Source of the DNA: Deltaproteobacteria bacterium | Lineage (GTDB): Bacteria > Bdellovibrionota_B > Oligoflexia > Oligoflexales > Bog-1112 | DNA length: 64,000 bases | Assembly: GCA_016186945.1 (NCBI GenBank) | Contig: JACPKR010000003.1 | Coordinates: forward strand, 11,542-75,541 | Direction of reading: 5' to 3' | Shown: piece by piece, positions 14,849 to 53,066 of the stretch | Numbering within the stretch: the stretch's first letter is position 1 | How the letters are laid out: each line of letters begins with the position of its first letter | Notes under the pieces: generated by a model | What the model saw: the letters and a program-made list of their open reading frames with translations, nothing else | Told to the model about the DNA's origin: nothing | Databases searched by the model: none | Program-made: the position numbers and the translations under genes

Positions 14849-14960
14849 AAGCCCCTTTTCAAAAAACTTCAATATCTAAAGTTTTTTGGGGGGAGGCGTG
14901 GAGGGGAACTTTTTTTCAAAAAAGGTCCTCTCCACAAATTCTTTTTCTCAAATACTATAG
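14849..14960 (+). mobile_element. Family B MITE, right two-thirds
   Basis: Near-identical to 19929-20040; ends in AATACTATAG; lies between actA and actB. Confidence 0.85.
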
Positions 14961-14990
14961 CTGCGCAAAAGACCTTGCTTTTCGCAGACG

Positions 14991-15581
14991 TTAGAAATGA
15001 CAAGTATTACAAGTCACCGGAGCGGTGGTCAAAGCAGGCTTCCCCTCTTTCGCCGGTTCCTTTACATTATTATGACAGTCGACACACCAGCCCATCTGGA
15101 GGGGCGCCCACTGTTCTGCTGTAAACATGCCCTGGACTTGCCCATGGCAGGATTGACACTCCAACACTGCTTTGCCATCTTTGTCCTTTGCCAAAACATG
15201 CACCCTGTGGCTGAACCTTACAAAGTCAGGAAGGTCGTGGACCTTCACCCACTTGATGGGTTCATTGTTGTCGAACATTTCTTTCATCTTTTTGATAGGC
15301 TCAGCACTCGTGTTAACAATCTTGTGGCACCCCATGCAGGTGTTGAGAGGAGGCAGCCCAGCTGTCTTCGACCTGCGTGCGGCCGAGTGACAATACTCGC
15401 AAGGAATCTTGCGGTCCGTCGCATGCATACGATGGTTGAAGTCAATGGGTTGCTTAGGATGGTATCCTGTACCAAAAAGGCTTTGAGTCGAATTGTCAAC
15501 CGAGTCTCCGGGAGTATAGCCCCACCAAGAGTAGGCCGATGAACTTAGAAAACAACTTAAGACAAGAATGCGCAGGAACAA
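14991..15581 (-). CDS. actA: Alternative complex III pentaheme cytochrome c ActA
   Basis: Five CxxCH motifs (CEYCH, CMGCH, CQSCH, CVDCH, CNTCH). Start reassigned to TTG 15581 with SD AAGGAGG at 15589-15595. Confidence 0.9.
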   Translation of the reverse strand: MFLRILVLSCFLSSSAYSWWGYTPGDSVDNSTQSLFGTGYHPKQPIDFNHRMHATDRKIPCEYCHSAARRSKTAGLPPLNTCMGCHKIVNTSAEPIKKMKEMFDNNEPIKWVKVHDLPDFVRFSHRVHVLAKDKDGKAVLECQSCHGQVQGMFTAEQWAPLQMGWCVDCHNNVKEPAKEGKPALTTAPVTCNTCHF

Positions 15582-15698
15582 ATGTAAGCCTCCTTGCTGA
15601 TTTCCACCACTTACTTGAAAATAAAATACGAGGCATAAAATCAAAGAATGAATTATCACAATTGTTTTGCGTGAGCCAATCATTTTCATCATATGTTC

Positions 15699-15821
15699 GT
15701 GAGGCGTAAGCCGCATGTTGTGAAAAGGGAGAGGTGGGTTTGGGGGGGCAAGTGAAGCGTCGCCTCCCCCGGATTTCTGGGAGGAACCAGCTGCGCAGTT
15801 TCCTCCAAACCACCTCCTTGC
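15699..15821 (-). mobile_element. Family A MITE, diverged, one TIR truncated
   Basis: Contains the core GGAGGAACCAGCTGCGCAGTTTCCTCCAAACCACCTCCTTGC and a TIR-like GTGAGGCGTAAGCCGC. Confidence 0.85.
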
Positions 15822-15840
15822 AACCAAGGAAGGATCACCG

Positions 15841-17847
15841 ATGACCGAGATTTATAGAATAGAGTCCCCTTTTCAACCTGCTGGCGACCAACCACAGGCG
15901 ATCGAAAACATAGTGAATTCGTTTTCTCGCGGAGACAAGCATCACGTCTTACTCGGCGTCACAGGGTCAGGAAAAACATTTTCCGTGGCCCATATCATCG
16001 CCCGACTGAATCGCTCCGCACTCGTGATCGCACCGAACAAAACTTTAGCCGCTCAACTTTACATCGAACTGAAGGGTTTGTTTCCCGATAATGCTGTAGG
16101 CTTTTTCATTAGCTACTACGATTATTTCCAGCCTGAAGCTTATGTCCCTTCCACAGACACTTACATTGCCAAAGACAGTGCCATCAACGACGACATCGAC
16201 AAAATGCGCCACAATGCGACGCAGCTTCTCTTTGAGGAGCCTGCCGCCATCATCGTCGCAAGTGTTAGCTGCATCTACGGCCTTGGTTCTCCAGACACTT
16301 ACGCTAGCAAGGTAGTCAATGTTGCCAAGGGTGATACCTTGAGCAGAAACGATTTGCTCCGCTCACTTCTTGCCATCAACTACCAGCGTAACGACCACAA
16401 CCTCCTACGTGGTCACCTACGCGTGAGAGGAGATATCGTCGATATCTTGCCGTCAAACCAGACAGACCGAGCTGTCCGTGTCTCCTTCCTGGAGACATCC
16501 GTAGAAAGCATCTCCCTCGTCGACCCGCTCACGGGCGAATGGCGAGAAGATCTTGAGGAAGTTTCGCTCTACCCGAACAGCCACTATGTAACGGACCGAA
16601 AAGATATGAAATCGGTCATAAACGAAATCCTCACCGATCTGGGAACCAAGCTGCGAGAGCTGAAGGATCAAAACAGACTGGTGGAAGCGCAACGGCTCGA
16701 ACAACGAACCATGCAAGACGTGGAAGCCATGGAGCAGCTTGGCTTCTGTCCTGGGATTGAAAATTACTCTCGCTATCTTTCCGGAAAAAAACCAGGGGAA
16801 GCTCCCCCTTGCCTTTTAGATTACTTCCCCCCCGACTTCCTGGTTATCATCGACGAAAGCCACATCACCGTCCCGCAATTGAAAGGTATGTACCGGGGCG
16901 ATCAGGCCAGAAAACAAACCCTCGTCCACTATGGTTTCCGCCTACCGTCCGCACTCGACAACCGACCCCTGAACTTCAATGAATTCTTGGAACGCTGTCA
17001 CCAGGTCCTTTTTGTTTCTGCCACACCCGGGCCTCTGGAATTAGCGATGGCCGATGGGCACATTTCTGAGCAAATCATCCGCCCCACCGGCCTTGTCGAT
17101 CCGAATATCATCGTGAAGCCTGCGAAATACCAAGTCGACGACCTACACACGGAGATCAAACGCGCGGTGGATTTGAAAGGACGCGTGCTCGTCACCACAC
17201 TTACAAAAAGAATGGCGGAAGATCTTACAGAGTACTACGCCGACCTCGGGGTTCGCGTGAAATACCTCCATGCTGATATCGACGCGTTGGAACGAGCATC
17301 ACTTTTACGATCCCTTCGCCTGGGTGAATTCGACGTCCTCATCGGCATCAACCTTCTTCGCGAAGGTCTCGACCTTCCCGAAGTCCTCCTAGTCGCCGTC
17401 ATGGACGCTGACAAGGAAGGCTTCCTGCGTTCGCACCGCTCCCTCATTCAAATTGTGGGACGAGCTGCTCGCAATAGCCAGTCACAAGTGATCTTTTATG
17501 CAGACACCGAGACTGAGTCGATGAGGGAAGCCCTCCACGAAACAGAACGACGCCGACAGAAACAACTCGCCTACAACGAAGCTCATAACATTACCCCAAA
17601 AACCGTGGTCAAGGACATTCCCAAAGACTTACGAGCCATGTACGGGCTTTCTGAATCCCTCGAGGAAACTCCGGAAGACATCCTCGATACATTGAGGCTA
17701 CAATTTAACTCAGCAAGCGACATAGAAACCGCTATCCGCAGAAAGACGAAAATTATGAAAGCCCATGCCGCACGAATGGAATTCGAACAGGCAGCGGAAC
17801 TTCGAAACGAAGTCAGGAAACTGAAAGCCTTGCTCCTTGTTTTTTGA
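15841..17847 (+). CDS. uvrB: Excinuclease ABC subunit B
   Basis: GVTGSGKT, YYDYFQPEAYVP, DESH, GINLLREGLDLPEV and C-terminal FEQAAELRNE. Confidence 0.98.
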   Translation: MTEIYRIESPFQPAGDQPQAIENIVNSFSRGDKHHVLLGVTGSGKTFSVAHIIARLNRSALVIAPNKTLAAQLYIELKGLFPDNAVGFFISYYDYFQPEAYVPSTDTYIAKDSAINDDIDKMRHNATQLLFEEPAAIIVASVSCIYGLGSPDTYASKVVNVAKGDTLSRNDLLRSLLAINYQRNDHNLLRGHLRVRGDIVDILPSNQTDRAVRVSFLETSVESISLVDPLTGEWREDLEEVSLYPNSHYVTDRKDMKSVINEILTDLGTKLRELKDQNRLVEAQRLEQRTMQDVEAMEQLGFCPGIENYSRYLSGKKPGEAPPCLLDYFPPDFLVIIDESHITVPQLKGMYRGDQARKQTLVHYGFRLPSALDNRPLNFNEFLERCHQVLFVSATPGPLELAMADGHISEQIIRPTGLVDPNIIVKPAKYQVDDLHTEIKRAVDLKGRVLVTTLTKRMAEDLTEYYADLGVRVKYLHADIDALERASLLRSLRLGEFDVLIGINLLREGLDLPEVLLVAVMDADKEGFLRSHRSLIQIVGRAARNSQSQVIFYADTETESMREALHETERRRQKQLAYNEAHNITPKTVVKDIPKDLRAMYGLSESLEETPEDILDTLRLQFNSASDIETAIRRKTKIMKAHAARMEFEQAAELRNEVRKLKALLLVF

Positions 17848-17849
17848 CA

Positions 17850-18044
17850 CTATAGTGTTTAAGGAAATCAATTTGGGGAAAAACTTTTTGGAAAAAGTTC
17901 TTTCCCCAAGCCCCTTTTCAAAAACTTCAATAGTTAAAGTTTTTTGGGGGGAGGTGTGGAGGGGAACTTTGTCATCCCGCGGCTTGACCGCGGGATCCAT
18001 TTTTCAAAAAAGGTCCTCTCCACAAATTCTTTTTCCCAATTACT
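17850..18044 (+). mobile_element. Family B MITE, full length, carrying an inserted REP
   Basis: Starts CTATAGTGTT; fills the whole uvrB-uvrC spacer; right end TTACTAT runs into the uvrC ATG. Confidence 0.9.
17970..17999 (+). repeat. Family C REP-like palindrome (GTCATCCCG type)
   Basis: TGTCATCCCGCGGCTTGACCGCGGGATCCA; absent from the other B copies at this position; same unit at 52915. Confidence 0.85.
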
Positions 18045-19877
18045 ATGAAAAAACTTCGTGAAAAACTAAAACGAGTCCCCTCCTCCCCAGGCAGCTACCT
18101 TATGAAAGATAAGGAGGGAGACATCATCTACGTTGGGAAAGCAAAGAATCTGAAGCACCGCCTGAGTTCCTATTTCGCCCGCACTTCGATCGAAGAGCCG
18201 AAGACACACGCCCTGGTGCAGGAGATCACGGACTTCGATATCATCCTCGTGAACAACGAAGTCGAAGCCCTGCTCCTCGAGCGGAGCCTTATCAAGGAGC
18301 ACAAACCCCGCTTCAACGTCATCCTGCGCGATGATAAGGAATACCCTTACCTGCGTGTCGACTTGCAGAACCAATGGCCCCGCATCAAGAAAGTACGTCG
18401 GCGTAAAAACGATGGGGCCACCTACCTCGGCCCTTTTAGCCACGTCAGTCAATTGAACGCGATCCTTGACCTCACCTTCCGTATTTTCCCCCTTATCCGC
18501 TGTTCCGAACACTACTTTGCAAACACAACGCGGCCTTGCAACTATTACCATATGAAACGCTGCCTCGGCCCATGCACGCTTCCTGTAAAGGAGGACTTGT
18601 ACAAGGGGATGGTGCGGGACGCGATCGCCTTCCTTCAGGGGAAGAACAAGGGGGTCATGAAAGCTCTCAAAGAAAAGCTGCTAGCTGCCTCCGAAAGTGA
18701 GGAATACGAATTGGCAGGGCGTTATCGCGACCAGCTCCATGCCCTGAGAACGATCACTCAGGAGCAAAACGTCGTCATTAAAAGTATCAAAGACTGCGAC
18801 GCCTTTGGGATCGCCCACGACCAGGACACCTTGTCCCTTCATGTGTTGAAAATTCGCGAGGGAAAAATTACCGGCAAGGATCGCTTCATCGTTCCCATGC
18901 CCCTTCCCCATCTGGCAGAAGCTGTAAGTGATTTCCTGCTTCAATACTACGAAGCCCGGTTTATCCCGCAAGAAATCATCCTGCCTTATGACTTCGCAGA
19001 TAGGGAAATTCTTGAACGCGCCCTGACCGAATGGTCCGAAAACAGGAAAGTTTCGCTGACTGTCCCCTCGAAGGGGCAGAAAATGCGCTTGGTGGAACTT
19101 TCCCACAAGAACGCTCTCTACCACCTTGAGGAGTCGCTTAATAAAAGAGCAAAGGAGAAAATTCGTCTGCAAGCCTTGCAAGACAAATTTCAACTGGACG
19201 AATTTCCCCTCCGCATCGACTGCATCGACATTTCGAATATACAGGGGACAGCCATCGTTGCCTCGCAGGTCTGTTTTCTGGGCGGTCGACCGGCGAAGGA
19301 CAAATACCGACTCTTCAATATCGAAGACTCACGAACAAGCCCCGACGACTACTGGGCCATAGGGGAAGTGACCAAGCGATATTTCGCTAGGCTCCTGCAT
19401 GAAAAGGAATGCCCCCAACTTCTCGTTATAGACGGAGGGAAAGGCCAGATGGCAGCCGCATTGGCTACGCTCAATCATTTTCCCGATCTCAAAATTCCCA
19501 TCGTAGGACTGGCAAAAAATCGAATACGCTACTCAGATGATGAAGAAGTAAGGACGGAGGAACGTGTTTTCTTCCCCGGGCAGCGAGACCCCTACATCCT
19601 GAAAGAAGGGTCTCCGGTCTACCAAATCCTTACACAAATCCGTGACGAAGCCCACCGCTTCGCCATCACCCACCACCGCAAACGACGAAAAGGTGTCCTC
19701 CAGAAATCCGTGCTGGACGAAATTCCCGGCATCGGCCCGTCGCTGAGAAAAAAATTGCTGGCTTACGCCGGAGATATAGAACAACTTAGAAATATGTCGT
19801 GGGAAGACCTTAGCAAAATCCCCGGCCTGCGAAAAAGCGTTGCGGAAGCCCTTTTCAAAAAATTATCTTCCTATTAG
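18045..19877 (+). CDS. uvrC: Excinuclease ABC subunit C
   Basis: GIY-YIG-like N-terminus (GSYLM..IIYVGKAKNL), CIDISN, IDGGKGQ, RDEAHRFA and C-terminal HhH (IPGIGP). Confidence 0.97.
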   Translation: MKKLREKLKRVPSSPGSYLMKDKEGDIIYVGKAKNLKHRLSSYFARTSIEEPKTHALVQEITDFDIILVNNEVEALLLERSLIKEHKPRFNVILRDDKEYPYLRVDLQNQWPRIKKVRRRKNDGATYLGPFSHVSQLNAILDLTFRIFPLIRCSEHYFANTTRPCNYYHMKRCLGPCTLPVKEDLYKGMVRDAIAFLQGKNKGVMKALKEKLLAASESEEYELAGRYRDQLHALRTITQEQNVVIKSIKDCDAFGIAHDQDTLSLHVLKIREGKITGKDRFIVPMPLPHLAEAVSDFLLQYYEARFIPQEIILPYDFADREILERALTEWSENRKVSLTVPSKGQKMRLVELSHKNALYHLEESLNKRAKEKIRLQALQDKFQLDEFPLRIDCIDISNIQGTAIVASQVCFLGGRPAKDKYRLFNIEDSRTSPDDYWAIGEVTKRYFARLLHEKECPQLLVIDGGKGQMAAALATLNHFPDLKIPIVGLAKNRIRYSDDEEVRTEERVFFPGQRDPYILKEGSPVYQILTQIRDEAHRFAITHHRKRRKGVLQKSVLDEIPGIGPSLRKKLLAYAGDIEQLRNMSWEDLSKIPGLRKSVAEALFKKLSSY

Positions 19878-20040
19878 TGTTCAAGATAATCAATTTGGGG
19901 ACAAACTTTTTGAAAAAAGTTATTTCCCCAACCCCCTTTTCAAAAACTTCAGTATTTAAAGTTTTTTGGGGGGAGGCGTGGAGGGGAACTTTTTTTCAAA
20001 AAAGGTCCTCTCCACAAATTCTTTTTCCCAAATACTATAG
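19871..20040 (+). mobile_element. Family B MITE, full-length reference copy
   Basis: CTAT(T)AGTGTT...AATACTATAG with three internal hairpins; lies between convergent stop codons. Confidence 0.9.
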
Positions 20041-20044
20041 TTCT

Positions 20045-20482
20045 TCAGAGATCCTTGATGTCCATAACGATGATGGCCTTTCTTTCCTTTATTTCGACCC
20101 CCGTTAAGGTCGTCACATACCCAGTCACGGAAACGTTCTTCCCGTCAAGTGCTTTGACGCTCTTCCTTTCCTTCCTGCTTAGGATGAGGTCGAACGTTCC
20201 GCTGTCTGTAGTCAGGGTGGTCCCCGACGTTTCCCCTCCGATCGCCATCACATGAGTTCGAAGGACACCGACGAGCGAAACTTGCTTTTCGTTTTGGTCG
20301 TCCTTATGCACGCAAAGGCCGATCCTCTGGTTGTAACGATAGTTTTGCTCGGGACACGAGCACTTGGAAGGGTGTCCCCACGGATTAATATCGCGTGTAC
20401 AAATCTTTGGATGCTGGTGGCGTAAAGAAAAGGCGTTTTGAGAAACAAAGAGGAAGAGCAGGGCGAATTTCACGATATTCAT
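20045..20482 (-). CDS. Small secreted hypothetical protein (Cys-rich N-domain plus beta-rich C-domain)
   Basis: Start reassigned to MNIVKFALLFLFVSQNAFS (signal peptide); four Cys in CTRDINPWGHPSKCSC...C. Confidence 0.7.
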   Translation of the reverse strand: MNIVKFALLFLFVSQNAFSLRHQHPKICTRDINPWGHPSKCSCPEQNYRYNQRIGLCVHKDDQNEKQVSLVGVLRTHVMAIGGETSGTTLTTDSGTFDLILSRKERKSVKALDGKNVSVTGYVTTLTGVEIKERKAIIVMDIKDL

Positions 20483-20567
20483 GGGAAGCCTTTCTCTTGG
20501 TTTAAACTTGCACCAACCTGCGTTTACTGTCAGTCTATCGCTTTTAGTAACCGCGGGAGTTTTTCTC

Positions 20568-23012: not shown

Positions 23013-23013
23013 A

Positions 23014-24059: not shown

Positions 24060-24147
24060 TTAACCCCCTGTTTTTGCTCCCATTTCGTACGTTGCAAATT
24101 CACTATGTTTGACAAGTGGCCAATCGGTCAAGTCTTTTCCTGCTGGG

Positions 24148-24217
24148 GTAATGGGTAAGCCCACTTGGGGCAAGGAGGTGGTTTGGAGGAAACTGAGCAG
24201 CTGGTTCCTCCAGAAAT
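24148..24217 (+). mobile_element. Family A MITE, left half only
   Basis: GTAATGGGTAAGCCCACTTGGGGCAAGGAGGTGGTTTGGAGGAAACTGAGCAGCTGGTTCCTCC. Confidence 0.85.
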
Positions 24218-24243
24218 GATACGACCAGGTTCCAAGGGTAGCT

Positions 24244-25460: not shown

Positions 25461-25606
25461 GTAATGCGTAAGCCACTTGGGGCAAGGAGGTGGTTTGGAG
25501 GAAACTGCGCAGCTGGTTCCTCCAAGAAATCACTTGGGGGAGCGACGGTTCCCTCGCCCCCCCAAACCCCCCTCTCCCTATTTGCCCCAAGTGGCTTACG
25601 CATTAC
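25461..25606 (+). mobile_element. Family A MITE, full-length reference copy
   Basis: Perfect 25-bp TIR GTAATGCGTAAGCCACTTGGGGCAA; 8-bp TSD GATGGCAA (25453-25460 and 25607-25614). Confidence 0.95.
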
Positions 25607-25773: not shown

Positions 25774-27537
25774 GTGAGAACAAAATTTTATTTGTTTTTA
25801 CTTTGTATTATCACGGACATAGTCATCTTGTCCTGTAAAACCAGAACAGCCAGAAAACCATCGGCCGCCGCAAAAGAAGCCGCGTTGGCGGAAAAAGGAG
25901 CTTGTCCCGAACCTGACGTGGGACTCTTCGGCCCACGAGAACCTATGAGCCTTGCTGGGCTACAACTCGCCTCTGGTGATGTCAAGGTTAGCTCAACCGA
26001 TTATAAACCTAACGCATTTACCACCCGCATCACTGTCGATCCCTTCGCTCTTGGCCGTAAAAACAATGAAGGATTGGGCCTAAGCTTGGTCGAGGGAGGC
26101 GCTGGCATTGAAGTTCCTCCCGTCTTTGTCATGTGGAAAGCCTGTCAGAAAACAGGGCAACAGTGTTCCAATAACGGCAATTGGGCAAAATCTTACGACT
26201 TCACGATAAACGACCTCAGCAAGCTTCCCACAGGTGTTCTGACTGTCAGCATCAGAGCATGTGTGGAAGATCTTGCGTTGGTGGTTCCCCAAGAACAAAG
26301 TGCGCTAACCAATTCGTGCACATCCGAAGATCCTTGCTACTGCGGAAAAGAAGTCAAAGTTCCTTACCTGCAAAAAGACTTCGCTTCTTCCGATGCAGAC
26401 CTGAACAAACTTGCACAAGATATCCAAAATGCCAAAGCAGTCATTTTCCAGAGAGCTAACGCCTATATCCAAAGTGCCAAATCTTACCTGCGAAGTTGCT
26501 CTCAAGATGCCGGGACGACCCCGTATGAGTATGCGAGAAATATAGCGTCTTATACTTCTGACGAACTTGCATATCTTACGGATAGCCTCGGCTACGCGAT
26601 GATCGATTTCACTAATTCTCTTATAAAGGAGGCTAGCACAGGTGGAGAACTTGGACTTGCTGAAGGAACGCCCTCTGCCTGCTTCAAAGGACTTCCTCCT
26701 CCGACGCCGGTCGCGGAACGAGGGGACTATTCCACCCCGAGCGGTGAAGCGGAACCGTTTTCTCCCGGAGAAACACCTGGAGAAACAGAAGTAACAGACA
26801 TAACGAAACCCATCCCCGAGCCGCGAGAACCCAGCGGGGAAGAGAAAGAGCTCGTAACAGGTCAAACACCCGCACCAGTCGCTTCAAGCACTCAGCAGGC
26901 CCTCCAGCAAGTCTCCCAAGTCCTCTTCGGCTTCGGCGCCACAGCGATCGTCCTTGGAGCTGTGGTTTTGGTCACCTCTGTGGTAGTCGCAGGGACGGGA
27001 GTGGCGTTAGATGTAGCAGTAGCGGTTGAGGACATTGCGGCTGCGAGGTCGGCGGCGGTGGAGGCGGATGCGAGGGCGAGATCGGCGCCGATGGTGGCAG
27101 CACCGGCGGGTACGTCAGGAGGTAGGTCGGTGGAGGCGGATGCGAGGGCGAGATCGGCGCCGATGGTGGCAGCACCGGCGGGTACGTCAGGAGGTAGGTC
27201 GGTGGACAGGATAAGGGCGGAGCCAGCGGGGACGAAGGTGGTGGCAGGTGGAACGGCGTGGGAGCCGAGAAAGGCTGCACTGGAATCAAGCATGATTCTG
27301 GAAAAAGCAGGAATAAAGGGTGCGTTAGTGTCGCTTGCAATGATATTGAGCGGTGTGGCGGCGGTAGCTGTTGGTAGTATTGGTTATTCTGGTTTTGCTG
27401 CTGGTCTTGCAGAGGGGACGGTTTGTGGGAATTTTGCCAGTGTTGCTGTGCAGAACGAAACGTCGCTCAAGCAGGCTGTGGACGTTTTGGTCGATATCGA
27501 GAATCAGTTTGACGCGCGTTTAGCGGTTCTTCGTTAA
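25774..27537 (+). CDS. Large hypothetical lipoprotein-like protein with Cys-rich domain, Pro/Glu linker and two long hydrophobic segments
   Basis: SD AGAGG then GTG 25774; lipobox-like VILSC (one Asp in the h-region lowers confidence); 602-aa open frame from 25729. Confidence 0.7.
   Translation: MRTKFYLFLLCIITDIVILSCKTRTARKPSAAAKEAALAEKGACPEPDVGLFGPREPMSLAGLQLASGDVKVSSTDYKPNAFTTRITVDPFALGRKNNEGLGLSLVEGGAGIEVPPVFVMWKACQKTGQQCSNNGNWAKSYDFTINDLSKLPTGVLTVSIRACVEDLALVVPQEQSALTNSCTSEDPCYCGKEVKVPYLQKDFASSDADLNKLAQDIQNAKAVIFQRANAYIQSAKSYLRSCSQDAGTTPYEYARNIASYTSDELAYLTDSLGYAMIDFTNSLIKEASTGGELGLAEGTPSACFKGLPPPTPVAERGDYSTPSGEAEPFSPGETPGETEVTDITKPIPEPREPSGEEKELVTGQTPAPVASSTQQALQQVSQVLFGFGATAIVLGAVVLVTSVVVAGTGVALDVAVAVEDIAAARSAAVEADARARSAPMVAAPAGTSGGRSVEADARARSAPMVAAPAGTSGGRSVDRIRAEPAGTKVVAGGTAWEPRKAALESSMILEKAGIKGALVSLAMILSGVAAVAVGSIGYSGFAAGLAEGTVCGNFASVAVQNETSLKQAVDVLVDIENQFDARLAVLR
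27057..27206 (+). repeat. Perfect 72-bp tandem repeat, 2 copies plus 6 nt
   Basis: Units 27057-27128 and 27129-27200 are identical and encode VEADARARSAPMVAAPAGTSGGRS. Confidence 0.95.
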
Positions 27538-30446: not shown

Positions 30447-30591
30447 GTCATGAGTAAGCCGCTTGGGGCAAGGAGGTGGTTTGGAGGAAACTGCGCAGCT
30501 GGTTCCTCCATGAATTCCTTGGGGAAGCGACGGTTCCCTCGCCCCCCCAAACCCCCCTCTCCCTTTTTTCCACAAGCAGCTTACAGGTTAC
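30447..30591 (+). mobile_element. Family A MITE, full length, diverged TIRs
   Basis: 8-bp TSD TTCAAATG (30439-30446 and 30592-30599). Confidence 0.92.
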
Positions 30592-32886: not shown

Positions 32887-32895
32887 ATAATTTCC

Positions 32896-32942
32896 TTGGA
32901 GGAACCAGCTGCGCAGTTTCCTCCAAACCACCTCCTTGCCGT
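32896..32942 (-). repeat. Family A core-only derivative
   Basis: TTGGAGGAACCAGCTGCGCAGTTTCCTCCAAACCACCTCCTTGCCGT, 9 nt after the pilA stop. Confidence 0.88.
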
Positions 32943-33037
32943 GGCGCCTCTCTGCCGCCGAGTTTAAGGTGGGTGTCTTGTAAATTCCCTGCTAAAGTTT
33001 TCCTGTGAAACAAACTTCATAAATTGGGAGTGTAGCT

Positions 33038-34446: not shown

Positions 34447-35290
34447 CCCAATTACTCCTAAAAAAATTTTTTTTATTATACATTGAATTTCTGTCGTACT
34501 CTATAGTGTTCAAGATAATCAATGTAATGCGTAAGCCACTTGGGGCAAATAGGGAGAGGGGGGTTTGGGGGGGCGAGGGAACCGTCGCTCCCCCAAGGGA
34601 TTTCTTGGAGGAACCAGCTGCGCAGTTTCCTCCAAACCACCTCCTTGCCCCAAGTGGCTTACCACGGAAAATTTCAGAGGCATTCTGCAACCATTCTACG
34701 GCATCGGAAAGTGGTAGGCCAATGACATTTGTGAAGGATCCGCGAATGCTCTTTATGAAGCATGTTCCCTTTCCTTGCAAGGCGTAAGCACCTGCCTTAT
34801 CCATAGGCTCACCCGATTTCACATAGGAGCTGATTTCCTCATCCCCAAGGATTCTAAACTGTACATCGGTTTCAAACAGCGCGCTAACGACTTTCCTCTT
34901 GAAAGGCTTTGCTTTAACGAAGTGAAAACACATAGCAGTCAGCACCTTATGCCACTTGCCGGAAAGTGCTTGCAACATTTGCACGGCTTCGTCCTGATCC
35001 CGCGGTTTTTCAAGAACCGAGGAACCGAGCAGCACAATAGTATCCGCGCTTATGATAATGGTATTTTGCTTCAATCTCTTGCAAAAAGCCTTGTCGTCCA
35101 ACAAGCATGCCCCCTTTAGGCGCGCATGCTGTTCAGCATAACGGCGTGGATCATTCAAAAGCCCGCGGTTGTTAGTTTCATCATAGCTGCTTGAGATGGT
35201 TTCAAAGACGATTCCTGCCTGGATTAGAAGTTCCTTGCGCCGCGGAGATGCGCTGGCGAGAAAAATTTGGGATGTGGCCGCCTGATTCAC
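34364..35290 (-). CDS. maf: Maf-family nucleoside triphosphate pyrophosphatase with a ~99-aa repeat-derived C-terminal extension
   Basis: LASASPRR, ISADTIV, EKP, LSGKWH, DKAGAYALQG and NVIGLPL. The Maf domain ends near 34663 and the frame continues through MITE A. Confidence 0.92.
   Translation of the reverse strand: MNQAATSQIFLASASPRRKELLIQAGIVFETISSSYDETNNRGLLNDPRRYAEQHARLKGACLLDDKAFCKRLKQNTIIISADTIVLLGSSVLEKPRDQDEAVQMLQALSGKWHKVLTAMCFHFVKAKPFKRKVVSALFETDVQFRILGDEEISSYVKSGEPMDKAGAYALQGKGTCFIKSIRGSFTNVIGLPLSDAVEWLQNASEIFRGKPLGARRWFGGNCAAGSSKKSLGGATVPSPPQTPLSLFAPSGLRITLIILNTIEYDRNSMYNKKNFFRSNWDEKVAFTRNGERRFWTSVRRRCGQISM
34501..34523 (+). mobile_element. Family B left-end fragment
   Basis: CTATAGTGTTCAAGATAATCAAT, directly abutting a family A element. 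Confidence 0.8.
34524..34662 (-). mobile_element. Family A MITE lacking the terminal 7 nt of one TIR
   Basis: Intact GTAATGCGTAAGCC at 34524; the other end stops at ...GTGGCTTAC; no TSD. Confidence 0.9.
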
Positions 35291-36101: not shown

Positions 36102-36159
36102 GTAACCCGTTCTTGGAGGAACCAGCTGCGCAGTTTCCTCCAAACCACCTCCTTGCCGT
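36102..36159 (-). repeat. Family A internally deleted derivative
   Basis: GTAACCCGT (matches the TIR variant of the 44384 copy) fused to the core ending CCTTGCCGT. Confidence 0.82.
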
Positions 36160-36183
36160 ACGTGCAACAAGCGAAGGGTCGTT

Positions 36184-41345: not shown

Positions 41346-44300
41346 ATGAAACATATTGTATCTATAGTGTTCAAGACAATCAATTTGGGGACAAACTTTT
41401 TGAAAAAAGTTATTTCCCCAAACCCCTTTTCAAAAACTTCAATATCTAAAGTTTTTTGGGTGCTCATGTTCGCAAACAACGCGATCGGAAGCGATCTCGT
41501 CAAATCGTTCCCCCTGGATGATTATAAGAACAAGAGCATTCTGGAACAGCGTTACAAATCTGTCGCGACCCTTTCTGATCTGAGCCGACTATTCAAAGAT
41601 ATCGAAAAATCGAGCAACATTTCCAAACTCGAACTGCACCGTGAAGGTGATCAATTCCACTGGGTTCACACACTCGCACATCCTATCCGCGACATAAAAA
41701 TCAAAACAAGCATCCGATTTAGAGAATTCACTCAAATCATCCGTAACAAATATGTGGGACGGATGAATTCGCTCCACCTCCAAGGCGTGCTCGTCTCGGA
41801 AATTTTGGAAAATTTTGAACGCATCGGATACCCCCATGCGCAGGCGAACTTATCCATCCTGGATGAAGATGGCTTTGCGGAATATGTTGTCGAAGTATGG
41901 CCAGGACTATCCTGCATCATTGCGGATGTTCAAGCTCCCGAGTCGCCCCATGCTGAAGTCTCCCTGGAGATCGGTCCCGGCGACCGTTGCGACATTAATC
42001 AAATCAAGGCTGCTGTCGAAAACTATGAACGCAAACTTATAGAGGAAGGATTTCAACAGGCTTCCCTTGAACTTGAGCCCCTCCAGTATTCCCGAAACAG
42101 AACCGTTCTCAACGTTCATATCCGAGGAGTCATCGGAAAAAAAATCGATTACCTGTTCATCGACGAGTCGAAAATCTTTTTCGGCAGCGCTATAGAAGAA
42201 GATATGATCCAATATTTTCGAGAAAATTTTTCCGATCCCAGGCAGGTGCGGGTCACATTGATAGACTATTTCAAACGCAAAGGCTACGACTTTGTAAGTG
42301 TCAAAGGCCCGTACCTTCAAAAGGAAAGTGATGACTTTCTAACCTATATATTTCTTGTAAACCCAGGCATAGCGTTCAAAGTTTCCGACATGCAGATAGA
42401 AGGTAACAGCCACCTCTCGACGGAAGACATCAAGGCCGCCATTGATTTTCAGAGCTTCTGGGAAAGCCTACCGATCATCGGTAAGGAAAAGTCCTATGAG
42501 GACATTTCCAAAGACATCCAACATTTCTACCATTCGAAAGGCTTCTGGAAAGCGACTGTCCAGCATTCACACACATCCTTTGACAGAGTTTCCAAATCCG
42601 CAAGAATGAATATTCTGATAGACGAAGGACTGCCCCACATGTTCCGTTCCCTCACGATTACGGGCAATCAAAATATTGATGAGGGTGATATCAGAAAACT
42701 GTTCCCTGCCCACGAGGGCGACCCACTCTTACAAAATCAATTGATCGACTTCGAATACTCTGTCCAGTCAAAATATTTCGAGCAAGGTTTCATTGAAAGT
42801 AAAGTTGCGACAAAGGTCGATACGTTCATTCAAAAAGAGACCGTCGCGACAGATGTAACCCTGCTCATAACGGAAGGCCCCCTCGTCCGCATCGGCACGA
42901 TCACTATCAAGGGATTGGTTGACACGAGGGAACCCGTCGTGCGAAGGGAGCTTCTCTTCAGTTCAGGTGACACTTTCAACCAAGAATTGATTAACCAAAG
43001 CAGAACAGCTTTAGTAAACCTAGGCATATTTTCTTCGGTTGCGATCGAGCGTTCCGAAATCAAACAGCACGATTCAACTCATGAAATCGACATCGTCATT
43101 CGTGTCAAAGAAGGAGACCCTGGCCGTGTCAAATTCGGCCCCGGCTTCAATCTGACCCGAGGGCTTCAATACGTGGGGGAAATCTCCTATAACAATCTTG
43201 GAGGAACAGGACGAAGGGTTAACGTGCGCGCAGCCGTCAGCGAAGAAAGGCAGCAGCAGTCCATCAGCGATCTTACGGATAAAGAAGGCAAGACACTCTT
43301 GGGACGTAAAGTCGGGCTTGGTTTTACAGAACCATACCTTCTCAATCTTCCCGTGCATGGTAATATCTCACTCTACCACCAGGCTATCGCTGATGACGTC
43401 TGGAAGTTGAGCAACTCAATTGAATTGTCCCTTTCCCATCATTTTTCACCTGATATTTTTATCGGTTCAGTCACACCGTTTTATCGTTTCAGCAGATTGC
43501 GGGATGAAGGGACAAGGGAGCAAAGGGACAGCTTGATTACCACCGGCAGTTCCGACATTGGAGCGTTGGGGGTTCGCTACAGACTGGACCGTCGAGACAG
43601 CTTGCTGTGGCCTACAAAAGGTTTCCTTTTCAACATCGAGGCCAGTTGGGCCCGTTACAACTTTTTCGGTCAGTACCGCTACTTCAAATGGCATCTCAGC
43701 TCAAGCCAGTATTTTGAACTCATGAATGACCTTGTCTTTGCATTCGGCATTGGCATTACCTCTTACGAAAGGGTACTGAGAAGGGGAGCCAATGCGGAAA
43801 CAGTCGACGTCTTGCCTGCAAACAATCGTTTGCTCGCAGGAGGCAGTAACGAAGTCAGGGGCTTCGACCACCAACTGGGACCTTATGTCCTAACCAAACG
43901 GACCGACCCTAGCAGCCAGACAGTCACGTATGATCGGGAGCCGCCCTTAGGTGGCTCAAAACGTCTCATTTTGAAATCGGAGTTACGACGTCAAGTCGTG
44001 CCGAACCTACTCGCGTTGTCCACCTTTCTCGACATTGGCAACAGCTTTTTCTCTCTTGATGAGGAAGATAAATTTAATAAGCGTTTCAGCGAATCTAAAA
44101 CTGCACAGACGGAACGAAGCATGGAAGACAATTTCAGCTACGACTTCTCCGAGCTTGTCACGCACCCCGAATACATACTGCTCAAGAATTATCAGTCATA
44201 CGGCCTCGCGCTTAACCTTCTCACCCCACTAGGTTCTTTCAATGCAGCCGTAGCACTTCCGCTGCGAGAACCTTCTAGCGATAGATGTCGTGGCGAAGGT

Positions 44301-44381: not shown

Positions 44382-44383
44382 AC

Positions 44384-44527
44384 GTAATGCGTAAGCCACC
44401 TGGGGCAAATAGGGAGGGGGGGGTTTGGGGGGGCGAGGGAAGCGTCGCCTCCCCCGGATTTCTTGGAGGAACCAGCTGCGCAGTTTCCTCCAAACCACCT
44501 CCTTGCCCCAAATGCCTTACGGGTTAC
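44384..44527 (-). mobile_element. Family A MITE, full length
   Basis: 8-bp TSD TTTTAGAC (44376-44383 and 44528-44535) containing the tamA stop codon. Confidence 0.95.
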
Positions 44528-44535
44528 TTTTAGAC

Positions 44536-45486: not shown

Positions 45487-45582
45487 GAATCGGTGCCCCC
45501 CCTCCCTAACGTCCTCACCCGATCATTACTGATATAATATCGGAGTTCCCTTAATAAATCTGAGTAGGAAAGGGGAAACAAG

Positions 45583-47979: not shown

Positions 47980-47984
47980 GACAC

Positions 47985-48012
47985 GTTCCTCCAAACCACC
48001 TCCTTGCCCCAA
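47985..48012 (-). repeat. Family A short fragment
   Basis: GTTCCTCCAAACCACCTCCTTGCCCCAA, located between the HEAT-HEPN gene stop and fabG. Confidence 0.75.
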
Positions 48013-48072
48013 ACGCGGAATTTTGTTACACCGAAAGTCATAGTGCTACGGATTCTCAAAGAGGGGCCATTT

Positions 48073-48798
48073 ATGCAAAGAGTAGCCTTAGTAACGGGCG
48101 CGTCTCGTGGTATAGGGGCGGCATGTGCTCAACTGTTGGGGGCAGAGGGATTTCGCGTTGCTCTTCATTTCGGACGCAATGAGGAGCAGGCTCGCAAGGT
48201 CAGTGAAACTATTGGTGACGCTCACCTCTTCCCTTGCGACCTTGCTTCTGAAGAAGCGTGTCAAAAACTGGTCACAGATGTTAAAAATCATTTCGGTCGT
48301 ATTGACCTACTTGTAAATAATGCGGGAATTAGCGTCGATCAGTTGGTTACCTTTGCAAAACCGGAGGACTTCGACCACATGATTCATGTGAATTTGAAGT
48401 CCGTTTTCCTTCTTAGCAAATTTGCCTCCCGCCATATGATCAAGCAAAAATCCGGGTCCATCATTAACATAACGTCGGTTGTAGGGTTCACCGGCAACGC
48501 GGGGCAATCTATCTATGCGGCAACAAAAGCGGCAATTGCTGGCTTCACAAAATCGATCGCCTGTGACTTGGCGTCCTTCGGTATCAGATGTAACTGTGTC
48601 GCTCCCGGGTTTATCGAGACCGACATGACTGCTGCACTGCCCCCGGATGTTCGAGAAGAGATTTTGCGAAAAGTCCCCTTGAAACGCCTGGGCACGACGC
48701 AGGAAGTCGCGCAGGTCGTTGCGTTCCTGGCGTCTGATAAAGCCTCCTACATTACGGGTTCGACCGTGCATGTAAACGGCGGACTCTATACCACTTAA
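48073..48798 (+). CDS. fabG: 3-oxoacyl-ACP reductase
   Basis: VTGASRGIG, NNAG, YAATK (YxxxK), APGFIETDMT and VNGG. Start reassigned to ATG 48073. Confidence 0.92.
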   Translation: MQRVALVTGASRGIGAACAQLLGAEGFRVALHFGRNEEQARKVSETIGDAHLFPCDLASEEACQKLVTDVKNHFGRIDLLVNNAGISVDQLVTFAKPEDFDHMIHVNLKSVFLLSKFASRHMIKQKSGSIINITSVVGFTGNAGQSIYAATKAAIAGFTKSIACDLASFGIRCNCVAPGFIETDMTAALPPDVREEILRKVPLKRLGTTQEVAQVVAFLASDKASYITGSTVHVNGGLYTT

Positions 48799-48809
48799 AG
48801 GACTCTTGT

Positions 48810-49817
48810 ATGGCAAAGATAGTCCTGACAGGAATCGGTCACAGCGTCCCACCGCACCTGATTTCCAACGAGTTTTTTGAAACACTTGACATCGAGTCCT
48901 CCTCCGAGTGGGTGAAAGAACGAACGGGCATAGAAAGCCGATATAGTGTTCTTCCAGAGGAAATTATCAGACGTCTGCGCTCAGGTGACTTGGAAAAGTC
49001 TGACTTATGGAAAGAAAAGCTCGCAACTCCTCTCGCAGAAATGACAGACGGAGCATGGGAACAGGCTTGCAATATGACAGGCAACGCAGCGTTTTCCCCC
49101 GACTTTCTGATTTGCGGAACATCCGTCCCTGACTTTTTCATCCCTGCAAACGCTTCGAAGATTGCCCAGAAACTTTGCTTATCTTCTCTTTCCTTCGACG
49201 TTAACACTGCTTGCAGCTCTTTTGTGACCAACCTTGCGGTTGCACGTGGGATGCTCTCGCAAGGGGAATACAGGAGCGCCGCGATTTTCAACGTTGAGCG
49301 TTATACGACGCAATTGGATTTTCGAGACAAGAAAACTTGTGTCCTTTTCGGTGACGGTGCAAGCTGTGCCCTTCTTCAGCAAACAGACGGAAGCCACGGC
49401 CTGGAACTCGTTGATGTAGTGTTGCACTCCGACCCGGCCGGGAGTGATCACGTGCAGATCCCGATCCACGACACGTTTTCGCAGAACGGAGCTGCGGTTC
49501 AGAAGTTTGCTATTGGCAAAACTGTGCAGGTAGTTTCTGAAATCATGGACCGCAATAGGTTATCTTCTGGGGATCTAAGATTTTTTATTGGCCATCAAGC
49601 AAACTTACGCATGTTGCAGGCTACCATTAAAAAACTTGGCTTGAGTCCCGAGCAGCACCTATATAACGTCACCACCCATGGGAATCAAGGAGCTGCGGGA
49701 GCGCCTTCCGTCCTCGCTCAGAATTGGAAGCGTTATGTGCCTGGTGATTACATTGTTGTGGCGGTTGTAGGAAGTGGACTCACCTGGGGCGCTGCTCTCT
49801 TTCGTCGGGGGGTATGA
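48810..49817 (+). CDS. fabH: 3-oxoacyl-ACP synthase III
   Basis: Catalytic Cys (NTACSSF), His (GHQAN) and Asn (HGNQG); LFGDGA; GSGLTWG. Confidence 0.92.
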   Translation: MAKIVLTGIGHSVPPHLISNEFFETLDIESSSEWVKERTGIESRYSVLPEEIIRRLRSGDLEKSDLWKEKLATPLAEMTDGAWEQACNMTGNAAFSPDFLICGTSVPDFFIPANASKIAQKLCLSSLSFDVNTACSSFVTNLAVARGMLSQGEYRSAAIFNVERYTTQLDFRDKKTCVLFGDGASCALLQQTDGSHGLELVDVVLHSDPAGSDHVQIPIHDTFSQNGAAVQKFAIGKTVQVVSEIMDRNRLSSGDLRFFIGHQANLRMLQATIKKLGLSPEQHLYNVTTHGNQGAAGAPSVLAQNWKRYVPGDYIVVAVVGSGLTWGAALFRRGV

Positions 49818-49833
49818 GCAGGAAAGCTGGTGA

Positions 49834-49880
49834 GCAAGGAGGTGGTTTGGAGGAAACTGCGCAGCTGGTTCCTCCAAGAA
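49834..49880 (+). repeat. Family A core-only derivative
   Basis: GCAAGGAGGTGGTTTGGAGGAAACTGCGCAGCTGGTTCCTCCAAGAA, between convergent stop codons. Confidence 0.88.
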
Positions 49881-49894
49881 GTCCCTTTAGCGTT

Positions 49895-50530
49895 TCATCC
49901 CACTTCCTCTAGCGCATTCTCGTTAGTGAGAACCGTCATCTGAAGGGCTGTGCTCTCTTTCGCGAGTTCCCGCAGGTAAGGCTCCAGTCGGGTGACGAGG
50001 ACACGTGCTAGTTCCTGCCAATGAAGTGCGCTCATCTTTTCATGAAAAGCTTCATGGGCGGAGCGGATCAAGTGGGCGAGTCCGTTCACTGGCGCTAAAT
50101 ATGCATGGCTGTAGTCCAGAATGCCATTCATATGTTCGATCAGTTCCAAGAGGAGACTGATGTCACTAGAGATCTCCTCAAGTTCACCACGCGGCTTGAT
50201 GCTTCCGTCTTGCCAACAATGAACTGCCAGTCCTTTCAAGCGATTGCTAATCGCGCTGGCAAGGTCTCCGACAACGTCGAGCGTTTGTAACGATAGATCC
50301 TTAGGACTTTCGATCCTGATGTGTAGAGAAGAGTTTGCATTCAAGGGAATATTTCTGACCTTCGTTTTTTTGAGTCCATCAACCATTTCCCGATCATCAA
50401 GGACCACGCTTGTCAGAATCGTGTCATGCTTGGCGAACAGCTTTTCCACCCAGCTTAGGGCTTCCCCGAGTGTTTTTATGGGGACGGGAACTGGGATTTC
50501 TTTGTGTTTAAGCTTGATCTTTTTCAGCAT
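49895..50530 (-). CDS. Hypothetical protein (small N-terminal beta domain plus helical bundle)
   Basis: 211-aa ORF with SD GGGGGCG/AAGAG upstream; co-oriented with the GT-TPR gene. Confidence 0.7.
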   Translation of the reverse strand: MLKKIKLKHKEIPVPVPIKTLGEALSWVEKLFAKHDTILTSVVLDDREMVDGLKKTKVRNIPLNANSSLHIRIESPKDLSLQTLDVVGDLASAISNRLKGLAVHCWQDGSIKPRGELEEISSDISLLLELIEHMNGILDYSHAYLAPVNGLAHLIRSAHEAFHEKMSALHWQELARVLVTRLEPYLRELAKESTALQMTVLTNENALEEVG

Positions 50531-50554
50531 GGGCTTTCTCTTTTCAAGGGGGCG

Positions 50555-52396
50555 TTAAGCCAGCGAAGCCTCACTATTCCTCCCAAGCTCTGCCTGCGTC
50601 ATACTCAAGAGGCGGTGGGCCCGATGATCGTTTTCGTCGTCATCCAGGATCCTGCGCATACTTTGCGCTGCTTCATCGAATTTTCCTTGCCGGTACAGGA
50701 CGCCACCCAAGGAGTACAGGATCTCATGATTTTGAGGGTGCAAAGCAAGGTAGCGACGTAGGCAGGTTTCCACTCGTTCGTAATCGTCGGTTTCGTACCC
50801 GATCCTGACAAAACTATAGAGGGCTGACAAATTTTCAGCGTTAAGTTTCAAAGCTTCATGTACCCATTTCGCGGCTTCTTTCAGCTGACCCAACGCTTGA
50901 AAAGCAAGTCCAAGGCCAAGATTAGCCATCTCGTCGTTAGGAGAGAGGGTGAGCGCTTTCTGGAAGTGCAGCACGGCAATTTCGTATTTCTTAGTCAGCA
51001 ACGTGATTGTTCCCAAGCCTATGTATGGTTTGGCTGACAATTCATCAGCCTCCGTTGCTTTAATATAGGCATTTTTGCTTTCCTCGAAATTTCCAAGCTT
51101 TGCAAAACAGTCGCCCATAATTCTATAAAGACTCGAAAGGTGATAATGGGGAACCTCCTCTCCACCGAGCGCTGATTCAATGATTTCCACAGCATCGAGG
51201 TACTGCTTGGTGGCAAGTTTCTTCTCAGCCTCAGCGACTAGCTTGTCAATGTCACGCGCTTCGACGAGGACGTCTTTGGATGTGGTCTTGATTAGCAACG
51301 TCTTCAACGTTTTCAGCTCATTTTCCAAGGGGTAGAATCGGGTCACTTTCTCTTTATTCTTAGCCGCTATATCTTTTGCCAAAGCGGGGGAATGTGCCAG
51401 CTTCGTGATAGCCTTCGCAAGGCTGCTTGGTGATCCCATGCAAAAATCAATTCTATGTTTTCCCACAAACTCCTCAATTACAGGCAGACGACAGGCAAGG
51501 ATGGGGATTTGGTAAACCATCGTCATCAGAACAAGGGACGGGTTGACGTAAAACGAATCGTGTGCGAATTTCGGTGCGCAATAGAGAGCCGAGCTAGCTT
51601 CAAGAGCTGTCGTCAGAGACACTTTGTTAGGAGGCGCAAAGACAACGTCGTTGTCGATCCCGATTTTGACCGCAAATTTCTTGATTTCCCCAACATAAGC
51701 ACCTTTTCCATATACGAGGAGTTTGCCGCGACGATGGAGATAGGAATCACTATCTTTTGCAAACCGTATAGCATGAAGAAGGTCTACAAGGTTTTTTTCC
51801 CAGGCAATGTTTCCCACAGCAGCAATGACAAAATCACCGTCACATAGACCGAGGGACTCGCAAGCTTCTGCCTTTCGCCTACTGCTGATCGCTTTTCTGT
51901 CCGGAACAAGGGGAGGGACGTAAAGGATTTTTTCCTCCTTTTCCCCCTCCAGACGGAGAAGTTTCCTTGCCGCATCGGACTGTACGAGAAAATAGTCCGC
52001 AAGTCCTCCCACTTCATCGCGGATGACCCGGACGTTGGGAAGTTCCTCACCAGGAAAAGACACCAGATTGTCGATCCATACGATCAAACGAAATAGATGC
52101 TTCGATTTCGCTTTGACGGCCTGATACGAGCAAAGGTTGGTTCGGTCTTTGACGATAACAACGTCAAAACCTTTCAGTATATTCTCAAGGCCAGGAAGAA
52201 AGGTTGGGCTTGACTCATAGTATGGCAGGGTAAGCAGAGCAAGCTTTGAATCCCTGAGGCAAGGGACCACCGATTCTCCAATTTTTGAAGACGTGATGAC
52301 ACTGAGTTCGCACGTCTCCGCGAGCGGTATGAACTGCTCAATATCGAAGACATTGGGATGGCACCCGAAAACAAGGGCTATTTTTGTCTTGTCCAC
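50555..52396 (-). CDS. GT-B (GT4-like) glycosyltransferase domain fused to TPR repeats
   Basis: AVGNIAWEKN, LLVYGKG and IPILAC segments of the GT4 C-lobe; several TPRs (PYIGLG, ANLGLG, ILYSLG); GTG start. Confidence 0.75.
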   Translation of the reverse strand: MDKTKIALVFGCHPNVFDIEQFIPLAETCELSVITSSKIGESVVPCLRDSKLALLTLPYYESSPTFLPGLENILKGFDVVIVKDRTNLCSYQAVKAKSKHLFRLIVWIDNLVSFPGEELPNVRVIRDEVGGLADYFLVQSDAARKLLRLEGEKEEKILYVPPLVPDRKAISSRRKAEACESLGLCDGDFVIAAVGNIAWEKNLVDLLHAIRFAKDSDSYLHRRGKLLVYGKGAYVGEIKKFAVKIGIDNDVVFAPPNKVSLTTALEASSALYCAPKFAHDSFYVNPSLVLMTMVYQIPILACRLPVIEEFVGKHRIDFCMGSPSSLAKAITKLAHSPALAKDIAAKNKEKVTRFYPLENELKTLKTLLIKTTSKDVLVEARDIDKLVAEAEKKLATKQYLDAVEIIESALGGEEVPHYHLSSLYRIMGDCFAKLGNFEESKNAYIKATEADELSAKPYIGLGTITLLTKKYEIAVLHFQKALTLSPNDEMANLGLGLAFQALGQLKEAAKWVHEALKLNAENLSALYSFVRIGYETDDYERVETCLRRYLALHPQNHEILYSLGGVLYRQGKFDEAAQSMRRILDDDENDHRAHRLLSMTQAELGRNSEASLA

Positions 52397-52770
52397 TATA
52401 TCGTCCTAGTAAAGGAGTGAGCCTTTGCTTTTGCAGACTGATATTTCTTGTTTCGTGATTTTTCCTTTTGCAATTTTGCAAGTTGCGAAAAGAGGTCCAT
52501 CCGGACACCTTCAAGGGAGCTGCCTAGCCTTAGATTCACGGCTGCAATTTTTTCTATGAGTTCTTTGAACGGATCATCTGCATCAAGTGCTTTCAATTGA
52601 TCGTAGTAACGATAGTTGTGATAAGCAGCGTTGCGCCATTTTAAAAGTTCGAGAGCCTGAGCCAATTTTTTCTTGTGAATAAGTTGCAAGACTCTCTCAC
52701 CACGATCGAGGTAGACCTGGAGGGCTGCGATGGCACGCGCCAAACTTTTTTCCGACATAGGTCGTTTCAA
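52396..52770 (-). CDS. Small helical protein, FliT-like
   Basis: 124 aa, all-helical, basic C-terminal segment ending ..KYQS..; SD GGAGG before TTG 52770. Confidence 0.5.
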   Translation of the reverse strand: MKRPMSEKSLARAIAALQVYLDRGERVLQLIHKKKLAQALELLKWRNAAYHNYRYYDQLKALDADDPFKELIEKIAAVNLRLGSSLEGVRMDLFSQLAKLQKEKSRNKKYQSAKAKAHSFTRTI

Positions 52771-52851
52771 GGCCGCCTCCTTCGTTTATTATAAACCAAG
52801 ACGGGCATCTTGCGGTAATCTGCGCTATTTCGGTTGGTACAATTTGCCTAG

Positions 52852-53066
52852 CTATAGTATTTGAGAAAAAGAATTTGTGGAGAGGACCTTTTTTGAAAAA
52901 AAGTTCCCCTCCGCTGTCATCCCGCGGCTTGACCGCGGGATCCAACGGCAGCCTTCCTCGAATAAGTTGGGTCCCGCGGTCAAGCCGCGGGATGACAGAC
53001 CCGTAAAAATTCTTCCCGAAAACTCGTAAAAGTTTTTCCCAAAATTGATTGTCTTGAATACTATAG
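52852..53066 (-). mobile_element. Family B MITE whose middle is replaced by a REP doublet
   Basis: Perfect 10-bp TIR CTATAGTATT at both ends; the empty site reconstructs to CTAG. Confidence 0.9.
52915..52997. repeat. Family C inverted REP doublet (REPIN-like)
   Basis: TGTCATCCCGCGGCTTGACCGCGGGATCCA, 23-nt spacer, TGGGTCCCGCGGTCAAGCCGCGGGATGACA. Confidence 0.9.

Follow-up and report, generated by a model that had tools for sequence, protein, structure and literature searches.

A stretch of 64,000 nucleotides from the draft genome of a bacterium of the order Oligoflexales (the window; positions 11,542 to 75,541 of contig JACPKR010000003.1, assembly GCA_016186945.1, part of contig C54 in our numbering) carries five copies of a short repeat, Family B, which a previous examination of the letters alone (the sequence-only reading) had placed at the same positions and described as an IS630-like MITE (a miniature transposable element with inverted repeats). 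The copies (table 1) were located by a direct-repeat search and by reading of the sequence, and the neighbouring genes were identified with Pfam. A truncated copy lies a short way upstream of a molybdopterin oxidoreductase gene, whose start is at 14822 on the minus strand, and two further copies border uvrC. The uvrC ATG (18045-18047) overlaps the last bases of the copy that separates uvrB from uvrC, where CTATA reads CTATG, and the uvrC stop codon is the TAG of the following copy itself (19875-19877), which is in frame through one extra T; without this T, at 19870-19877 (CCTATTAG), uvrC would acquire a 28-codon tail. The fourth copy lies inside an Omp85/POTRA gene, and the core of the fifth, a variant termed B2, is built from a pair of inverted hairpin units of 28 nt (52916-52943 and 52969-52996). 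CTATAG is read at six of the eight visible ends in the window, the exceptions being CCTATTAG and the CTATG at 18043-18047; most ends do read CTATAG, as had been stated, but the count given then was seven of nine. Similarly, the initial length of about 169 bp is of the correct size class, but it counts the flanking C and G, the consensus being 167 bp with both TAs included.

This consensus extends from TATAGTRTT to AAYACTATA, and 167 bp is the exact length of 48 of the 58 full copies in the alignment. The host genome searched is a 2.66-Mb draft in 76 contigs (48% G+C, 91% complete), in which the genome-wide BLASTN check suggested earlier revealed an abundant, dispersed family (262 high-scoring segment pairs, HSPs). 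An nhmmer profile built from the 58 full copies gave 433 matches. These correspond to 249 loci without overlap (67 full copies, 68 that retain only the 5' end, 100 that retain only the 3' end and 14 internal fragments), which make up about 1.8% of the assembly. From TATAGT through to ACTATA the positions are 90-100% conserved, and conservation falls to background one base beyond. The mean pairwise identity among full copies is 94%, and two sub-lineages can be distinguished (TAGTG...CCCAAAT and TAGTA...CTCAAAG). Three length variants were found: one of about 80 bp, with the interior deleted; the B2 form of about 188 bp, in which the ends (1-38 and 105-166) enclose an unrelated core; and one of 195 bp carrying a 28-nt hairpin. 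This hairpin (GTCATCCCGCGGCTTGACCGCGGGATCC), which also makes up the core of B2, is present in 152 genomic copies, of which 48 form adjacent pairs in inverted orientation and 88 are within Family B copies or border them; a similar unit (GTCATTCCGAGCCTCAAGCGAGGAATC) is seen in the prfC-glnS spacer of the same-genus genome G003. As expected of a MITE, the element is shorter than about 300 bp and has no transposase gene, its sole open frame encoding a 55-residue, low-complexity basic peptide, and its many copies are dispersed between unrelated flanks (249 loci in 2.66 Mb). Outside the host, exact-pattern scans of genome and metagenome contig collections gave no match, BLAST found no copy in 30 relatives, and neither BLAST nor a scan with its terminus detected the element in any of the three same-genus genomes. 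Family B is, thus, a real and recent family that expanded in one species.

The architecture of the element was deduced from its internal symmetry. The terminal inverted repeats match perfectly over TATAGTRTT/AAYACTATA and agree at 20 of 28 positions over 28 nt, and the left 84 nt are 65% identical to the reverse complement of the right 84 nt (alignment score 74, compared with 24 ± 6 for shuffled sequences). Family B is, therefore, an inverted duplication of one arm of about 84 nt composed of the terminal repeat and a AACTTTTT/AAAAAGTT palindrome. The RNA fold prediction yields the three hairpins already proposed from the letters, plus a terminal stem, with a calculated energy of −56.8 kcal/mol (z = −5.9; none of 200 shuffles as stable), and the opposite strand is predicted to fold alike. 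The strength of this fold, along with the many copies located shortly before gene starts or at stop codons, could be taken to indicate that Family B is kept mainly as a structured RNA or regulatory DNA (a terminator, a promoter, an RNase III site or a small RNA), its transposon-like ends being incidental. However, the inverted-arm layout is enough to account for all three hairpins, since each arm forms one and the third arises at the centre of symmetry, so that no functional explanation is needed; no Rfam family was matched in the window, and neither a sigma-70-like promoter nor an intrinsic terminator pattern was found in the full copy examined. Furthermore, three genomes of the same genus do without the element, so that no conserved host function depends on it. 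A regulatory or RNA role as the main reason for its maintenance is, accordingly, considered very unlikely.

The flanks are those of an element that inserts at TA. The dinucleotide is present on both sides in more than 90% of the ends, the base 5' of TATAG is C in 90 of 135 ends (67%, against a background of 21% before TA; p = 1.6e-29), and the base 3' of CTATA is G in 82 of 167 (49%). When the target was rebuilt as N-TA-N for 46 full copies, with all NTAN sites of the host genome as background, CTAG was obtained in 13 cases (28%, compared with 3.4% of the NTAN sites, an approximately eight-fold excess), ATAG/CTAT in another 13 and CTAA/TTAG in eight. CTAG is a real preference, not a rule; the TA/CTAG target proposed initially holds for the TA, and CTAG is enriched but far from universal. 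In seven of the 46 rebuilt targets the TA is the start of the stop codon (mostly TAG) of an open reading frame (ORF) of at least 80 codons, which is expected because the element favours CTAG. A target duplication of 3-4 bp or longer was also considered and is ruled out by the flank profile, the outer C and G being complementary rather than identical.

The last point bears on the nature of the enzyme. The CTAG-like bias of the flanks might also be produced by a transposase outside the IS630 family, for example one of the IS5 group that duplicates a 3-4-bp YTAR or CTAG target, and IS5-group elements do favour YTAR targets. However, a direct repeat of that length is incompatible with the C-TA-TAG...CTA-TA-G arrangement, conservation is far lower for the outer C and G than for the TA, and the termini match specifically the inverted repeats of IS630-family elements, as described below, so that mobilization by such an enzyme is regarded as extremely improbable.

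The evidence for an IS630 connection came from a scan for the 26-nt terminus, with no more than three mismatches, in 131 genomes belonging to the same class (the reversed pattern, used as a control, gave no match). Matches were found solely in the host (133 sites) and in G089, a genome of the same order (three sites), where the pattern is matched at 23 of 26 positions and C-TA-TAGTATTCAAGAAAAGTAATTTGG marks the end of an element at three different sites. The sole G089 copy assembled beyond approximately 95 nt (on contig C154) has an ORF for a 355-residue transposase just inside the matching end, and this protein scores 210 bits on the NCBIfam profile NF033545 'IS630 family transposase' (cut-off, 100). 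Related genomes often carry IS630-family genes. Eighty relatives of the G089 transposase (43-64% identity) were then taken from genomes and metagenome-assembled genomes (MAGs) of many phyla. Among them, 31 complete insertion sequences (ISs) of about 1.2 kb have the same terminus at both ends, TATAG(A/T)(C/T)TTTAAGAAAAAGATTTTGGGG, with TATAGNNTTYAAGAAAAAGATTTTGGGG as the shared consensus, to which the two Family B termini agree at 21 and 22 of 28 positions, values similar to that for the two termini compared with each other. The best single match (24/28) is an end beside a partial transposase match, which lies on a short contig of a MAG (L142). Where a genome carries several copies of one IS, these copies differ in the base just outside the TA; this base, again mostly C, therefore derives from the target. 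The clade with TA-TAGNNTTYAAGAAAAAGATTTTGGGG termini (L062, that is the G089 element on C154, and L068-L147) is found in Desulfobacterales, Methylococcales, Acidobacteriota, Chloroflexota and others.

From the match between its termini and the inverted repeats of these ISs, Family B is very probably a transposase-less MITE of the IS630 type, moved in trans by an IS630-family transposase, which supports the initial IS630-like MITE assignment. Several observations weigh against this conclusion. The host assembly contains no IS630 transposase or fragment of one: the profile PF13358 (DDE_3) gave no match, NF033545 detected only a weak helix-turn-helix-like stretch (E = 0.006), and tblastn with the G089 protein returned nothing below E = 2. 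The search for an IS630/Tc1-mariner transposase with TAGTRTT ends that the sequence-only reading had recommended was, therefore, negative in this assembly. The likeness to the sampled ISs ends after about 28 bp and the interior matches none of them, so that the direct parent is not among them, and the second inverted repeat of the G089 element was not located. As to the duplication of the TA, no empty site was found within the host genome when 302 flanks of 80 nt were searched against it by BLAST (two abut other repeats, and neither yields an uninterrupted host copy), and none could be found at base resolution in the three same-genus genomes, the flanks being just 68-80% identical. In the latter search, for which the rebuilt sites were concatenated and compared with the three genomes, a single HSP crosses a junction, in the prfC-glnS spacer of G002. 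This spacer is contiguous and free of the MITE, and the host spacer, after removal of the element and one TA, has the same length of 12 nt, but its sequence is too diverged to distinguish duplication from none. Considered alone, the host genome fits both a duplicated TA and a TATAG...CTATA element inserted without duplication. A search of the host for an autonomous partner, as paired ends 1-6 kb apart, returned neighbouring partial copies only, and an exact UvrC look-up found no other assembly of the same strain.

Taken together, Family B is an ordinary kind of element, with the features of a MITE, direct proof of the duplication aside, and those of an IS630-mobilized one, a resident transposase aside. 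With respect to the cognate transposase, either the family is orphaned or its IS was not binned with the genome. Because the host assembly holds no IS630 transposase and no other genome or metagenome searched holds Family B, it is regarded as a species-restricted, orphan family among the collections covered. In the mechanism proposed, the N-terminal helix-turn-helix domain of the transposase would bind the approximately 28-bp termini, and the enzyme, acting in trans, would excise the element and paste it into a TA, preferably within CTAG or CTAN, with duplication of the TA on insertion. The family would have spread recently in one species and then been orphaned, its present orphan state being suggested because no matching transposase is found in the assembly. 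With a net insertion of 165 bp (55 codons) and one open frame, one in six insertions would be translatable, and a few shortened copies would persist in genes, as a tolerated side effect rather than a selected function.

The open frame is the feature that led to the proposal that Family B may insert in frame into genes. Of the six frames, the one that begins at base 2 is the only open one, and its 55 codons (IVFKIINLGTNFLKKVISPSPFSKTSIFKVFWGEAWRGTFFQKRSSPQILFPKYY) yield the peptide that had been predicted. Statistically, such a frame is unremarkable, since one or more open frames are found in 8% of the sequences obtained by mononucleotide shuffling and in 30% of those simulated with a first-order Markov model. 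It is open in 42 of 48 copies compared with about 35 expected under random substitution, although this test is biased by counting inherited subfamily variants as mutations. About 30% of the element ends are bordered by a long ORF that is read outwards, and ORFs of at least 100 codons leaving the 167 intact 3' ends are in the open frame in 16 cases and in the other two frames in 10 and 23, so that no enrichment is observed. Thus, in-frame residence in genes does occur, but only shortened copies in aroA and in the Omp85 gene document it and the reading frames of the adjacent genes do not favour it.

In aroA, which is the sole copy of this gene in the host genome, the element (contig C59, 43247-43352) contributes 36 MITE-coded residues, with about nine more, between ...SLLKV and SEMQDTDLM. 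The Pfam EPSP_synthase match is split at profile positions of about 35-41, the best stretch restarting at 41, and the AroA orthologues of the same genus read ...YLRGVLHSEDTQWM without the insert of about 45 residues (approx. 440 residues compared with 495). In the Omp85 gene, the copy begins at a C-TA site five codons past the ATG and is read in the open frame of the element. The end of the upstream gene and the ATG AAA ... ATT GTA start are conserved with G002, in which the N-terminus reads MKTIV-ITLGLCISTS-LMFAD; in the host it reads MKHIVS, followed by the 33 MITE codons and VLMFANNAIG, the inserted codons replacing the 10-residue hydrophobic signal-peptide core of the orthologues. In both genes the copy, which would be translated as part of the protein, is truncated on one side with the frame kept; presumably, selection retained only frame-preserving remnants. 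These are the only two of about 249 loci verified as gene-resident by comparison with orthologues, and both genes look essential. Several other copies are candidates, to be taken as leads only in view of the frame test: they directly precede, in frame and without an intervening ATG, GTG or TTG, a signal-peptide core or a conserved N-terminus (among them those at guaA, two lipoprotein genes and a TolC-like gene). In guaA (contig C12, 82570-82800), Family B immediately precedes the conserved N-terminus, and the start codon must be in or before the element, or be non-canonical. On contig C18 (2907-5565), an 886-residue stop-to-stop ORF joins in frame, via Family B, two outer-membrane-like genes in tandem; both have a signal peptide of their own and neither has a Pfam match.

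Such cases raise the question of whether Family B is a protein-editing element like the Rickettsia palindromic elements (RPEs), with its length, open frame and basic peptide selected for life in genes, to which it would supply segments such as parts of signal peptides. A net insertion of a whole number of codons with one open frame, the remnants in aroA and in the Omp85 signal peptide, the copies preceding signal-peptide cores and the retention of the frame would all agree with it. However, open frames arise by chance in 8-30% of composition-matched sequences, downstream genes do not prefer the open frame, the verified cases are two and both truncated, and the retention test has the bias indicated above, making selection for such a role decidedly unlikely. 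The related idea that Family B, through its net length of exactly 55 codons, its single open frame and its strongly basic peptide, is a ready-made translatable module, repeatedly used to rebuild N-terminal export signals and to decorate enzymes such as AroA, is also judged unlikely, if slightly less so. It would build on the verified Omp85 case and on several lipoprotein and outer-membrane genes in which the element directly precedes the hydrophobic core in frame; if true, an RPE-like process would exist outside Rickettsia, with an origin that can be traced to IS630.

Comparison with known systems is consistent with the IS630-type MITE assignment. IS630 and ISY100 belong to the bacterial Tc1-mariner family (PMC2170065) and share with Family B the TA-TAG... 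terminus, the TA flanks, and the C before and G after the TA; the passage of PMC2170065 that cites Tenzen & Ohtsubo 1991 states that IS630 prefers the TA within CTAG. The approximately 28-bp terminal repeats of Family B match a defined IS630 clade, but the element has no transposase gene, is 167 bp rather than about 1.2 kb long and has an interior unrelated to the sampled ISs. Family B behaves like other MITEs derived from IS630 and like RUP of the pneumococcus, a classic MITE attributed to IS630-Spn1 on the same kind of evidence, according to the account of Oggioni & Claverys 1999 given in PMC2229807. RUP and Family B are small, non-coding elements with a TA at each end and inverted termini like those of an IS630-family IS, present in at least 100 copies that are mostly intergenic and have the high identity of a recent spread. 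RUP is, however, shorter (107 bp) and unrelated in sequence, whereas the IS that matches Family B is missing from its genome and the closest terminus match comes from another family of the same order; its host is an uncultured Oligoflexales-like bacterium, and its double-arm, three-hairpin build and few in-frame genic copies also set it apart.

The Correia/NEMIS elements of Neisseria (PMC2229807) are similar in size class (approx. 107-155 bp) and in their TA-containing, inverted termini, and Correia elements give stable stem-loop transcripts. They have no assigned transposase, whereas the termini of Family B are tied to an IS630 clade; the host lineages differ, and Family B, unlike Correia/NEMIS, is not known to have an integration host factor (IHF) site or to be processed by RNase III. 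The Correia terminus also starts with TATAGTG. The TATAG start of the IS630 clade recalls it as well, as a resemblance alone. The Correia link is, therefore, one of resemblance only (size, TA ends and TATAGTG start), and Family B is not filed as a Correia member. RPEs (PMC2229807, PMC10969869) are likewise palindromic, with an open frame, and fused in frame in conserved genes, and they have been reported in 19-44 genes (PMC2229807, PMC10969869). Family B differs in having clear transposon termini, no frame enrichment and, instead of frequent in-frame residence in conserved genes, two truncated cases among its approximately 249 loci. The likeness to RPEs is real but rare.

Other repeats are present in the window (table 1). 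Family A, which is unrelated to Family B (core, GCAAGGAGGTGGTTTGGAGGAAACTGCGCAGCTGGTTCCTCC), has about ten copies there, and across the genome about 400 places match a 32-nt segment of it. A G+C-rich stretch at 27056-27199 is a perfect 72-bp tandem duplication, and a 117-nt direct repeat (1476-1592 and 2573-2689; 71% identity) probably reflects tandem paralogous lipoprotein genes.

Table 1. Family B copies, the nested hairpin unit and Family A copies in the window (positions are those of the 64,000-nucleotide stretch).
Feature	Position	Strand	Remarks
Truncated Family B copy	14849..14959	+	3' two-thirds only (model positions 58-166 + terminal A); 3' end ...AAATACTATA-G
Family B, 195-bp variant	17851..18046	+	between uvrB and uvrC; 5' end C-TA-TAGTGTT, 3' end ACTATG
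28-nt hairpin GTCATCCCGCGGCTTGACCGCGGGATCC	17971..17998	+	nested inside the 195-bp variant; separate small repeat family, 152 genomic copies
Full-length Family B copy	19872..20039	+	directly after uvrC; left end TATTAGTG (one extra T), right end ACTATA-G
5' part of Family B	41363..41461	+	model positions 2-99, 99 nt = 33 codons; inside Omp85/POTRA gene
Family B variant B2	52853..53065	-	different core enclosed by Family B termini (model 1-38, 106-166); ends C-TA-TAG...CTA-TA-G
Family A copy	15698-15829		
Family A copy	24161-24217		
Family A copy	25461-25606		
Family A copy	30447-30591		
Family A copy	32893-32947		
Family A copy	34525-34656		
Family A copy	36110-36164		
Family A copy	44383-44527		
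Family A copy	49825-49881		
Family A copy	56402-56544		

The present analysis reveals no new kind of biology overall, and its main value lies in annotation and in the two in-frame remnants. At about 1.8% of the genome, Family B will make gene callers misplace starts and stops, as exemplified by the start and stop of uvrC, the start of guaA, the 886-residue fused ORF and extended N-termini. The remnants in the single-copy aroA and in the Omp85 signal peptide are natural experiments on the tolerance of proteins to foreign sequence. Finally, Family B is a clear-cut example of a MITE whose termini link it to an IS630 clade even though its host has no such transposase, and it bears on how MITEs may outlive or outrun their parents.

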